Part shown: piece after piece, positions 3,001 through 6,000 of the stretch
Numbering within the stretch: position 1 is the first letter of the stretch
Layout: every line of letters begins with the position of its first letter
IMG/VR virus record: IMGVR_UViG_2537561709_000006
Length of the DNA stretch: 10,166 nt
From: a virus
Taxonomy: Duplodnaviria; Heunggongvirae; Uroviricota; Caudoviricetes
Strand: one strand, 5' to 3'
Position numbers: made by a program

Positions 3001-6000
3001 GAGATAAGAGCCAGTCATTAAAAATACCTGGATTTAGCCTCGCATTCGCGGGGCTTTTTTATTGCCATTACAAAAGCCACTCCCTACAGAGTGGCTTTGA
3101 TAATGGCTTATACCCTACACGGGATAACTTAACTGATATCCCTTTTAACGGATAAAGGTATTCAAGCCTGACACATCATGCGCTGTATCGTCGCTGTATT
3201 CCCGCATTAACCATGACCGTAGCCCGACGGGGAACTCCTTCTGCGCGAGTGTGCGGGAATAATCAAAAACGATGCACACCGGGTTTTTACCGCGCTAATG
3301 ATTCGCGGGTTTGTCCCTCATGCTCGCCAGTCCTGTGCGGGGGTGGAAGAAACAGGACACTCACACAGATTCTTGTGGGTCGATGCTATTCCTTTCTGGA
3401 TTATCCCGATGCCATTCATGCAAGGGCTGTATCAGACGTTCGTCATGGCTTTCAGGCTGACGGCTCCTCCCGGTGGGGTGGCCTGCCACGGGGCGGGAGC
3501 GTCGCGGAAAAAGGCTAGTTTTTGCATTTTTATCGGCCACCATCATCTTTGCATCTTATTGATTATTAATGGTTATTTGTTTTTTGTATGTCGAATTGAG
3601 TGTTTTTTGTTCGACATCGAACGCGTTTTCTTAAAGTTGTTCGCACGATGCATGTTTAAAGCTCTCCGGAGGAAATATGGATCATGAGTTGAAAAACCTG
3701 GTGCTGAATATTAATCAACTGGCGGCTTTATCTGGTCTGCACCGCCAGACTGTCGTGGCAAGACTGAAAAACATTCGTCCCGCTGGTGGACATGACAAAC
3801 TCAAGCTATACCGGTTGACCGATATTCTGACTGAATTTATGGGGTTACCACCGCCGGTTGCTGAGGGCGAAATGGATCCACATGAACGCAAAGCCTGGTA
3901 TCAGTCTGAACGTGAGCGTCTTAAGTTCGAACAGGAAACGGCACAACTCATTCCGGCCAGTGATGTCAGACGGGAGTTTGCCATCTGGGCAAAAGCGGTC
4001 GTGCAGGTGCTGGAGACATTACCGGATATTCTGGAACGTGACTGTGGTCTGCAGCCTGCCGCTGTGAGCCGTGTTCAGTCCATTATTGATGATCTGCGCG
4101 ATCAGATAGCCCTGCGGGTGACCGAAGCAGGTGCGGATGATGAGGAGGAATTACAGCAGGAGGAGTAATGCTGAATCAGGAAACCGCAAAGGCAGCACGA
4201 ACCGATTCAGGTTATATCCTTCGCGCACCGAGACGAATGCGGGTTGCTGATGCCGTTGCTCAGTATATGCGGGTGCCCATGGGGGCCGGGAACTCAGTCC
4301 CGTGGGATCCGCTGGTGGCACCGTATGTTATTGAGCCGATGAACTGCCTGGCCTCGCGTGAATACGACGCAGTGATATTTGTTGGCCCGGCACGAACCGG
4401 CAAGACTATCGGCCTGATTGACGGCTGGGTGATTTACAACGTGATTTGCGATCCTGCGGATATGCTGATCATTCAGATGACGGAGGAAAAAGCCCGCGAA
4501 CACTCCAAAAAACGACTCGCCAGAACGTTTCGCGTCAGCCCGGAAGTGGTCAGTCGCCTGAGTCCGAACAAAAATGACAACAACGTTTATGACAGAACAT
4601 TCCTTGCTGGCAACTACCTGAAAATCGGCTGGCCGTCAGTCAATATCATGTCCTCATCAGATTATAAATGCGTGGCGCTGACGGATTATGACCGTTTTCC
4701 GGAAGATATTGATGGCGAGGGGGATGCCTTCTCTCTTGCCTCAAAACGTACCACCACATTTATGTCCAGTGGTATGACGCTGGTGGAGAGTTCCCCCGGC
4801 AGGGATGTGAAGGATGTGAAATGGCGACGGACTTCACCGCATGAGGCTCCACCAACCACGGGGATACTGTCGCTCTATAACCGTGGCGATCGCCGTCGCT
4901 GGTACTGGCCCTGTCCACACTGTGGTGAGTATTTTCAGCCCTGCGGCGATGTGGTTGCTGGTTTCCGTGATATTGCCGCTCCCGTGCTGGCAAGTGAGGC
5001 GGCTTATATTCAGTGTCCTTCCTGTTCAGGACGGATTATGCCTGAACAAAAACGTGAGCTGAACGGACGTGGGGTCTGGTTGCGGGATGGTGAATCCATC
5101 AATGCGGATGGTAGTCGTTATGGTGATCCCCGACGCTCACGTATTGCGTCATTCTGGATGGAGGGTCCGGCAGCTGCTTACCAGACACTCTCGCAACTCG
5201 TTTACAAACTGCTTACTGCAGAACAGGAATACGAGACAACCGGAAGTGAAGAAACACTCAAGACGGTTATCAATACCGACTGGGGATTACCTTATCTTCC
5301 CCGCGCCAGCATGGAGCAACGAAAAAGTGAACTGCTTGAGCAGCGGGCAGAGCCAGTTCCTTCCAGCAGTGTGCCGGATGGCGTTAATTTCCTTGTGGCG
5401 ACAGTGGATGTGCAGGCGGGACGTCATCGCCGTTTTGTGGTTCAGGTAACGGGCTATGGCAGCCGTGGCGAACGCTGGATTATTGATCGTTACAACATCA
5501 CGCAGTCATTGCGCGGTGACAGCGACGGTGAGAGCCAGCGAATTGATCCGGCCAGCTATCCGGAAGACTGGGATGTCCTGCTGACGGATGTTTTTCATAA
5601 AAGCTGGCCGCTGGCCTCCGATCCTTCTCAACAAATGCGACTGATGGCAATGGCGGTGGACTCCGGCGGTGAAGACGGGGTCACTGATAATGCCTATAAA
5701 TTCTGGCGTCGTTGCCGTCGTGATGGCCTTGGTAAACGTATTTACCTGTTTAAGGGCGACAGCATCCGGCGCGCAAAACTGATCACCCGTACATTCCCTG
5801 ATAACACCGGACGAACGGGCCGACGGGCGCAGGCCGCAGGTGATGTGCCGCTCTGGCTTCTTCAGACGGATGCACTGAAAGACCGGGTGAATAACGCGTT
5901 ATGGCGTGACTCTCCAGGTCCCGGCTATGTGCATTTCCCTGACTGGCTGGGGAGCTGGTTTTACGACGAACTGACGTATGAAGAGCGGAGTAGTGACGGG

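Follow-up and report, generated by a model that had tools for sequence, protein, structure and literature searches.

A lambda-type cos region with a variant predicted cohesive end in the decayed Escherichia coli O157:H7 prophage Sp3

The 10,166-nucleotide stretch of viral DNA analysed here (IMG/VR record IMGVR_UViG_2537561709_000006; hereafter the window) is Sp3, a prophage of E. coli O157:H7, with ca. 99.95% identity to Sakai across the first 10.1 kb, and its positions 3462 to 3676 very probably represent the cos region of this lambdoid prophage, belonging to a packaging module of the Gifsy-2/cdtI/mEp460 type whose overhang has drifted and whose Sp3 copy is a relic. Because the differences from lambda are confined to the half of the site already known to vary, and because they sit in a decayed prophage that forms no virions, the feature is an ordinary and essentially known one. 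Its elements are listed in Table 1.

Table 1. Elements of the cos region and the adjacent terminase genes (positions in the window; values with a plus sign count from the first overhang base).
Feature	Position	Strand	Remarks
cosQ-like heptamer GGCTCCT	3462..3468	+	6/7 match to lambda GGGTCCT; related copies compared
CCGGTG block between cosQ and cosN	3470..3475	+	-21 to -16 from the nick, same distance in lambda
cosN, CG + GGGCGGGAGCGT + CG	3489..3504	.	predicted; left half and CG flanks fit the conservation rule of PMC4669245
I2-like A/T-tract segment	3508..3531	.	A5 3508-3512, T5 3519-3523, T5 3527-3531; +18 to +41
Candidate R3-equivalent TerS site CCACCATCATCTTTGC	3538..3553	+	+48 to +63; putative
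IHF-consensus-like site AATCAATAAGATG, weak candidate	3552..3564	-	1 mismatch; between R3-like and R2-like elements
Inverted repeat ATGTCGAA (3588-3595) / TTCGACAT (3610-3617)	3588..3617	.	candidate R2-like (inverted) and R1-like (direct) TerS sites; putative
Small terminase TerS, DUF1441 family, 163 aa	3677..4168	+	
Large terminase TerL, gpA family, 700 aa, intact	4168..6270	+	Pfam and BLASTP

Results

The cosN junction reads ACG/GGGCGGGAGCGT/CGCGG at 3488-3507 (ACG at 3488-3490, the predicted overhang at 3491-3502 and CGCGG at 3503-3507) and shares 8 of its 12 overhang positions with lambda GGGCGGCGACCT, including all of bp 1-6, with mismatches at 7, 8, 9 and 11. A motif scan with ACGGGGCGGNNNNNTCGCGG returned a single exact match in the window, at a chance expectation of ca. 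0.03 even with two mismatches allowed. Predicted nicks at 3490/3491 in the top strand and at 3502/3503 in the bottom strand would give 12-nt 5' overhangs of 5'-GGGCGGGAGCGT at the left end and 5'-ACGCTCCCGCCC at the right end. CG dinucleotides lie directly beside both predicted nicks (3489-3490 and 3503-3504) and are kept in all lineages that we compared; these symmetric flanks are retained in the window, where two-fold rotational symmetry extends to 8 of the 16 bp of cosN (10 in lambda, 10 in Gifsy-1 and 8 in mEp213). The ungapped identity to the 54-nt cosQ-cosN segment of lambda is 30/54 against a null mean of 27.2 and a null maximum of 31, so that this pairwise similarity, taken alone, is not above chance, and what supports a lambda-type cos is the set of specific motifs, with their placement and their retention in related sequences, rather than overall likeness over these 54 nt.

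Upstream of the junction, the cosQ-like heptamer starts 29 bp from the top-strand nick, compared to 30 bp in lambda. GGGTCCT is the form found in lambda, in 103 of 110 related copies and in PhiR47_1, the closest phage; the G-to-C change at 3464 that turns this motif into GGCTCCT was otherwise found only in two loci identical to the window and, on these comparisons, is private to the Sp3 lineage.

The gene order around the site is holin, lysozyme, Rz, cos, TerS, gpA-type TerL, a W-like gene and a lambda-family portal; in the head module, ClpP protease and capsid are fused as in Gifsy-2. The junction lies 186 nt upstream of the TerS start codon (ATG at +187 from the first overhang base), as compared to 190 nt (+191) for lambda nu1 and +185 in cdtI, and the TerS stop codon overlaps the TerL start. 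TerL matches the Pfam families GpA_ATPase (PF05876, E 4.4e-72) and GpA_nuclease (PF20454, E 1.9e-85) and shares 25% identity with lambda gpA over 623 aa (BLASTP, E 2e-19). TerS does not belong to the Nu1 family and showed no similarity to Nu1 in sequence comparison; it resembles Nu1 only in the fold of the DNA-binding domain.

In lambda, the segment I2 between cosN and cosB (bp 18-50) carries A/T tracts and forms an essential static bend (PMC4856287). The A/T tracts of the window occupy the position of this segment and may similarly be bent. Their first part, CGCGGAAAAAGGCTAGTTTTT (A5 and the first T5), is near-invariant in 110 copies and kept in other lineages, and the third tract is unconserved in most classes. 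Further downstream, a block of the TCATCATCATC type stands at the R3 position in all lineages whose TerS has the N-terminus SGxHRQTxxARL, while class B has GGCGGCGGC there together with a different TerS N-terminus, i.e., the N-termini co-vary with the DNA at this position across relatives. For orientation, R3 spans bp 50-65 in lambda and bp 48-60 in N15. A consensus scan turned up one IHF-like site with one mismatch in cosB, although sites of this quality are fewer across the window than chance alone would give; a TTGAT core is kept in the family alignment. A strict scan for the R motif TCNNCAYC gave one match only in the window; copies of this motif on the minus strand near +98 and on the plus strand near +122 (about +121) recur in the mEp213 group, Kp4865-4 and VT1-Sakai, and Gifsy-2 retains the repeat with changes in both arms. 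A cosB-like arrangement of blocks at +48 to +63, ca. +98 and ca. +121 recurs in sister lineages and is without statistical significance within the window.

At least 120 viral contigs carry the identical 21-mer junction, next to four different cosB/TerS types, and it is present in hundreds of E. coli genomes as well; lambda, Gifsy-1, cdtI, mEp213 and Stx phages all show the same cos architecture. Since the scan of viral contigs admitted only sequences with CACG on the left side of the nick, contigs opening at the nick were undetectable and the scan is silent on physical ends. The GenBank records of cdtI (AB285204) and Tritos (OV696610) start at GGGCGGGAGCGT and end in ...CCACG, exactly at the predicted nicks. 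On these points, the preliminary description of this DNA holds: it had proposed a lambda-type cos with ACG and CGCGG flanks, four differences among 12 overhang positions and a small-terminase start at near-lambda spacing, and all of this is confirmed, with the predicted nicks coinciding with the termini of the cdtI and Tritos records. Among the papers surveyed, which included those on Ayreon, Tritos/LF82, SfIV and LLS, we found no physical mapping of the ends of phages with this type of terminase; the papers on Ayreon, Tritos/LF82 and SfIV report no end mapping for the cos type of the window, and those on Ayreon and LLS (the latter PMC12315714) infer the cos site or call it putative. A full-text search of the literature for GGGCGGGAGCGT matched only two unrelated eukaryotic papers.

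Discussion

In functional relatives of Sp3, and by homology to lambda, the DUF1441 TerS would use its winged-HTH domain to bind cosB on the right side of cosN and thereby anchor the gpA-family TerL, which would nick the positions equivalent to 3490/3491 (top) and 3502/3503 (bottom) to release 12-nt 5' cohesive ends, with 5'-GGGCGGGAGCGT on the left. Packaging would run rightwards into the terminase and head genes up to the next cos, where the upstream cosQ heptamer would be needed for complete nicking and for ending the process.

Work on lambda-like cosN sites by Feiss and colleagues showed that bp 7-12 vary naturally whereas conservation is seen in bp 1-6, the CG flanks and cosQ, that nicking in lambda is affected little or not at all by changes of bp 7-12 (C11G is without phenotype), that lambda TerL cuts the cosN of N15 as well as it cuts that of lambda, and that packaging specificity resides in the pairing of TerS and cosB (PMC4669245). 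All four overhang differences between the window and lambda fall within this variable and mutation-tolerant half, next to cosB, and the overhang is therefore unlikely to set terminase compatibility; the variant is ordinary drift within a known class and not a change of specificity. The earlier suggestion that a divergent overhang would affect compatibility with lambda-type terminases is not supported, given the tolerance of bp 7-12, the neutrality of C11G and the cutting of N15 cosN (PMC4669245), and compatibility should instead be set by cosB and TerS. Four mismatches may plausibly impair the annealing of heterologous ends in hybrid chromosomes. Judged by sequence, the overhang is also less unusual than had been implied, given that the Gifsy-1 end GGGCGGCAGCGT is only one base away. 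A more far-reaching possibility, which we regard as doubtful, is that cosQ, the left half of cosN and I2 are interchangeable, that any gpA-type terminase terminates at such cos sites and that ends of different groups then cyclise poorly, together with the related idea that relic cos sites such as that of Sp3 could be points of termination or initiation for co-resident terminases. If true, the poor cyclisation of mixed-group ends would limit the hybrids between prophages that survive.

Could the likeness to lambda cos be a product of chance in a G+C-rich intergenic stretch, or the trace of a coding region? The 54-nt identity does fall within the null range, and open reading frames overlap the site (3213-3518, 3298-3687 and, on the minus strand, 3361-3546), with hypothetical proteins annotated there in some phage records. 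Yet the exact 15-base motif is unique in the window, and the stretch is conserved block by block, with small indels, in many lineages with unrelated flanks, which is unlike the pattern of coding DNA. It is unannotated in RefSeq, the reading frame 3213-3518 matched no Pfam family and an Rfam search gave only chance matches below threshold. We rejected these reading frames as genes on their conservation pattern and the RefSeq annotation, and the sequence comparisons effectively refute chance or coding as an explanation. It is a less remote, though still unlikely, alternative that the cos site is real while the terminase of this lineage nicks elsewhere, so that the overhang differs from the predicted 12 nt in length or register. 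Nick geometry could differ from that of lambda, since TerL is so distant from gpA and TerS lacks sequence similarity to Nu1; the surveyed papers named above gave no experimental end mapping; and the distance from ACG to CGCGG is 10 nt in Stx2_14040 and CP-1639, 11 nt in VT1-Sakai, 9 nt in Flotzy and 14 nt in Gifsy-2, so that either the 12-nt rule is not universal in the lineage or these records are erroneous. The odd spacings, however, sit in G/C runs that are prone to errors of sequencing or assembly, while in the class of the window the spacing is exactly 12 nt as in lambda, the conserved CG beside both predicted nicks is the signature of a lambda-like cosN, and two independent GenBank records (cdtI and Tritos) were opened precisely at these nicks.

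As the preliminary description had expected of an integrated prophage, the site is internal in the window because the window is one, namely Sp3. This prophage lacks repressor and replication genes, its integrase and portal are disrupted, and neither its circularisation nor its replication or packaging was detected (PMC2669165); the window shows the frameshift of the portal gene, at 7504. The proposal that the site defines the ends of a virion chromosome is not supported for a prophage that is neither excised, replicated nor packaged (PMC2669165), has a frameshifted portal and carries a lineage-private change in cosQ. We consider it quite improbable that the Sp3 site still functions, with cleavage upon induction by its own terminase, or that of a co-resident prophage, and a start of packaging of the right arm of Sp3 with the effector genes nleB, nleC, nleH and nleD. 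The intact TerS and TerL of Sp3 would allow for this, a 1.3-kb query (spanning the last part of the lysis region, cos, TerS and the very start of TerL) has one to three matches per O157 genome, and Sp4 is packaged in trans despite lacking an intact terminase. Circularised, replicated or packaged Sp3 DNA was, however, not observed in the study cited above, the missing repressor and replication genes speak against it as well, and packaging could terminate only at another cos that is oriented alike and lies roughly one genome length downstream. The Sp3 copy, in a prophage unable to excise, replicate or build heads, is therefore most likely a relic and presumably inactive, and since Sp3 is decayed and not packaged, the consequence of the variant for this locus is small.

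The practical value of the site lies in annotation, since CACG/GGGCGGGAGCGT/CGCGG flags the packaging site in a lambdoid prophage family that is very common in E. coli and Shigella, and can serve to orient these genomes and to predict where they end. The site adds a natural data point to the rule that freedom to drift is confined to the cosB-proximal half of cosN, a rule that holds here even with a TerL 25% identical to gpA and a TerS that is unrecognisable as Nu1 by sequence.

Comparison with known systems

The order and spacing of subsites in the window are those of lambda, with cosQ ca. 30 bp upstream, CCGGTG at -21 to -16, a junction of the form ACG/GGGCGG...T/CGCGG with 12 nt between the nicks, A/T tracts at +18 to +41, a TerS start ca. 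190 nt downstream and a TerL of the gpA family. Unlike lambda, the window differs at overhang positions 7, 8, 9 and 11, has cosQ 1 bp nearer to the nick, encodes a TerL that is only 25% identical and a DUF1441 TerS sharing only the fold of the DNA-binding domain with Nu1, has an unrelated cosB sequence and continues into a Gifsy-2-like head module with fused ClpP protease and capsid. Gifsy-1, a lambda-like phage in the definition of Feiss, shares the cosQ heptamer and departs from lambda in cosN's right half at 8, 9 and 11 with the same left half. The window has the extra change C7G as the single base of difference, and Gifsy-1 has a Nu1/gpA-like terminase, head genes like those of lambda and 21, and a cosQ spacing of 30 bp.

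A sister lineage is formed by mEp213 and LLS, for which an inferred or putative 12-nt overhang GGGCGGCGCGCT has been given (PMC12315714, citing Vahanian et al. 2017). These phages share the terminase lineage (a DUF1441 TerS and a distant gpA-type TerL), Gifsy-2-like heads, cosQ, the left half of cosN, the CGCGG flank, an I2-like block and similar R-like elements, but the right half of their overhang is CGCGCT instead of GAGCGT and their TerS starts at +130 instead of +187. The cosN of cdtI and Tritos is identical to that of the window, their TerL is closely related and their records are opened at the predicted nicks, whereas cosB and the TerS N-terminus are of class B and cosQ is the canonical GGGTCCT; both are inducible phages, in contrast to the decayed prophage studied here. 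In the cosN variants of N15 and phiD326, variation is likewise confined to bp 7-12, with bp 1-6, the CG flanks and cosQ conserved (PMC4669245), though they differ from lambda at two positions (9 and 12) rather than four, and the cosB of N15 is simple. PICIs copy the cosQ and cosN of their helpers (PMC9026076, PMC10111431), which is echoed by a satellite-like element (in locus L017) that carries the identical cosQ/cosN 21-mer. Unlike the cos sites of PICIs, however, that of the window precedes a full pair of TerS and TerL together with phage head genes and is a prophage cos, not a satellite cos.

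A lambda-type cos site with a variant overhang

The junction downstream of Rz reads ...GACGGCTCCTCCCGGTGGGGTGGCCTGCCACG/GGGCGGGAGCGT/CGCGGAAAAAGGCTAGTTTTTGCATTTTT... in the window and ...ACGGGTCCTTTCCGGTGATCCGACAGGTTACG/GGGCGGCGACCT/CGCGGGTTTTCGC... in lambda, with slashes setting off the predicted overhang, which differs from that of lambda at positions 7, 8, 9, and 11. The motif ACGGGGCGGNNNNNTCGCGG has a single exact match in the window, where 0.03 matches would be expected even with up to two mismatches. Counted from the first base of the overhang, the small terminase (TerS) ORF begins at +187, and nu1 of lambda at +191. 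The preliminary description of this junction (four differences in 12 positions, conserved flanks) and of the TerS spacing is accurate and its identification as a lambda-type cos right, and the site belongs to a common, already sequenced prophage family. Ungapped comparison with the 54-nt lambda cosQ-cosN segment gives 30/54 identical positions, no more than shuffled controls can reach (mean 27.2, maximum 31); the case for a cos site is made by specific motifs, position, and comparative data and not by general likeness to lambda.

Features around the cos site (window coordinates; +n counted from position 3491)
Feature	Position	Remark
Holin	1641-1901	P21-type
Lysozyme	1901-2398	
Rz	2383-2862	cos comes next
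ACG flank	3488-3490	
Predicted overhang	3491-3502	GGGCGGGAGCGT
CGCGG flank	3503-3507	
A5, T5, T5 tracts	+18 to +41	
IHF-like site	3552-3564	1 mismatch; not above chance
Inverted repeat, 8 bp	3588-3595 and 3610-3617	perfect; ATGTCGAA and TTCGACAT
TerS	3677-4168	DUF1441 protein
Large terminase (TerL)	4168-6270	gpA family; ATPase and nuclease domains
Small W-like ORF		follows TerL
Portal gene	~6479-7988	lambda family, 503 aa; frameshifted
ClpP-protease/capsid fusion		follows portal

TerL shares 25% identity with lambda gpA over 623 residues, and both gpA Pfam domains score strongly. TerS has no BLASTP similarity to lambda Nu1 and matches no PDB entry by sequence; all 687 homologs that we detected are DUF1441 proteins, and all source-named ones come from Enterobacterales. 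An AlphaFold model built with 30 homologs predicts a beta-alpha-alpha-beta-beta winged helix-turn-helix (HTH) in residues 9-46, with long helices after it. A Foldseek search with the whole chain gave weak local matches only, to MerR-type winged HTH domains.

The first ~10.1 kb of the window are ~99.95% identical (5 substitutions) to Sp3, a prophage of E. coli O157:H7 Sakai, where position 903612 corresponds to window 3491; the last ~60 bases are out of register, apparently through an indel. Window 3000-7000 is 98.9% identical over 4 kb to PhiR47_1, the nearest relative among phages, and falls into the mEp460/cdtI/Tritos group. Late-region cargo differs between the two despite near-identical packaging modules, since PhiR47_1 has four tRNA genes, for Met, Lys, Thr, and Gly (locus L139, 875-1184), ahead of its holin, and a holin/lysis cassette of another kind. 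At ~820-1640 the window instead has a 252-aa ORF without Pfam family and, in antisense, a 132-aa ORF. The Rz-cos interval (3000-3358) is 89-96% identical to a segment that unrelated lambdoid phages carry immediately to the left of their genome end; it is located ~120 nt before the right end of the 2B8 record and is also matched in Kati and YDC107_1. This likeness stops before cosQ, and the interval is a mosaic joint adjoining cos.

The Sp3 copy lies in a defective prophage

Both repressor and replication functions are missing from Sp3, its integrase, Bet, and portal genes are disrupted, and neither circularisation nor replication nor packaging was detected (Asadulghani et al. 2009, PMC2669165). 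In agreement with the portal entry of that study, an extra T at window 7504 relative to PhiR47_1 splits the portal gene, whose ORF stops at 7531, with the remainder running on to 7988 in a different frame; the RefSeq annotation has two fragments or a pseudogene. The cos site thus lies in a defective prophage, and the suggestion that this copy defines virion chromosome ends finds no support.

The exact cosQ/cosN 21-mer CACGGGGCGGGAGCGTCGCGG occurs in at least 120 IMG/VR contigs and adjoins four distinct downstream cosB classes (A to D; 110 usable copies), of which C is that of the window and B that of cdtI (AB285204) and Tritos (OV696610). Of the 110 copies, 103 have GGGTCCT as their cosQ heptamer, and four more carry it one base out of register. 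GGCTCCT, with a G-to-C change at 3464, is found only in the window and two other loci identical to it over 950 nt; the remaining class C copies keep GGGTCCT (one shifted by a base), as does PhiR47_1. Loss of cosQ is lethal in lambda and keeps the bottom strand from being nicked at termination (PMC4856287). The distribution of GGCTCCT is as expected from relaxed selection on an immobilised prophage, and the change at 3464 probably reflects decay of the packaging-termination signal.

Overhang variation and the predicted ends

Junctions extracted across phages share one architecture of GGGTCCT cosQ, CCGGTG-bearing spacer, CACG/GGGCGG, variable right half, CGCGG, and A/T-tract block. The right half is CGACCT in lambda, CAGCGT in Gifsy-1, GAGCGT in the window class and cdtI/Tritos, and CGCGCT in mEp213, mEp043, Eeyore, and Kp4865-4; the window end is therefore that of Gifsy-1, which we checked directly in its sequence beyond the published statement, with one more change (C7G). 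Lambda-like phages are defined by 12-base 5' ends resembling those of lambda, with bp 1-6, the nick-adjacent CG pairs, and cosQ conserved and differences common at bp 7-12 (N15 and phiD326 at 9 and 12; Gifsy-1 at 8, 9, and 11; Feiss et al. 2015, PMC4669245). There, G2C lowers yield about tenfold while the symmetric C11G has no phenotype, and lambda TerL cuts its own cosN no better than that of N15, because cosB-bound TerS anchors it for bottom-strand nicking. All four window differences fall into this tolerant half, so the variant is in line with how cosN is known to vary in nature, and the idea that the overhang governs terminase compatibility finds no support. The A/T tracts of the window recall I2, described by the same laboratory in 2016 as a statically bent, essential stretch (bp 18-50) that contains irregular A/T tracts (PMC4856287). 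The overhang inferred in a 2025 paper on the sister lineage LLS/mEp213 is GGGCGGCGCGCT; its authors term the mEp213 site "putative", crediting Vahanian et al. 2017 together with a personal communication, liken the head genes to the fused protease-coat arrangement of Gifsy-2, and assign TerL to lambda's group (BLASTP E-value 4e-18; PMC12315714).

In the papers examined, those on Ayreon, Tritos, and LLS among them, we found no physical end mapping for phages with this terminase type; cos was inferred from TerL phylogeny for Ayreon, and the Tritos paper does not discuss genome ends. The cdtI and Tritos records open with GGGCGGGAGCGT and close with ...CCACG, which may reflect annotation by lambda analogy and not experiment. 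There is a modest probability that this lineage is nicked at positions other than predicted, as the ACG-to-CGCGG spacing varies from 9 to 14 nt in sister lineages: 9 nt in Flotzy (locus L011) and the mEp460_4F5 record (L137, 1-30), 10 nt in Stx2_14040 (L005) and CP-1639 (L008), 11 nt in VT1-Sakai (L007), and 14 nt in Gifsy-2 (L142, ~18020-18060). An upstream spacer longer by 2 nt preserves the cosQ-to-CGCGG distance in Stx2_14040 and CP-1639, and this distance is 1 nt longer in VT1-Sakai. Real variation in the length or register of the overhang would explain the odd spacings, as would errors in G/C runs at genome ends.

cosB classes and terminase recognition

Next to the 21-mer, CGCGGAAAAAGGCTAGTTTTT is nearly invariant among the 110 usable copies, and the DNA at the lambda R3 position changes together with the N-terminus of TerS: class B pairs ...FGLHRDTVKKRL... 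with GGCGGCGGC, and classes A, C, and D pair ...SGxHRQTxxARL... with CATCAYCAY. A TCNNCAYC-type element lies in direct orientation at ~+45, inverted at ~+98, and direct at ~+122 in the mEp213 group, Kp4865-4, and VT1-Sakai, a layout resembling the R3, I1, R2, R1 order of lambda. The window has a strict match only at +121, and its R-like cosB subsites are putative.

One locus, L017 (IMGVR_UViG_2574179916_000005), carries the identical 21-mer twice on the same strand, 8.1 kb apart (92-112 and 8227-8247). The first, prophage copy is followed by DUF1441 TerS, a TerL truncated past the ATPase domain, an integrase, a Bro-N protein, an AAA_25 protein, and SSB, and the second by a cdtI-type cosB and a ClpP-capsid gene. 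L017 resembles a satellite inserted among prophage late genes with a copy of its helper's cos, for which the HE-PICIs (PMC10111431) are the comparison.

The C-terminal halves of TerS are alike across cosB classes. The classes repeat the pattern of lambda and phage 21, in which cosQ and cosN are common and cosB/TerS recognition is private (PMC4669245).
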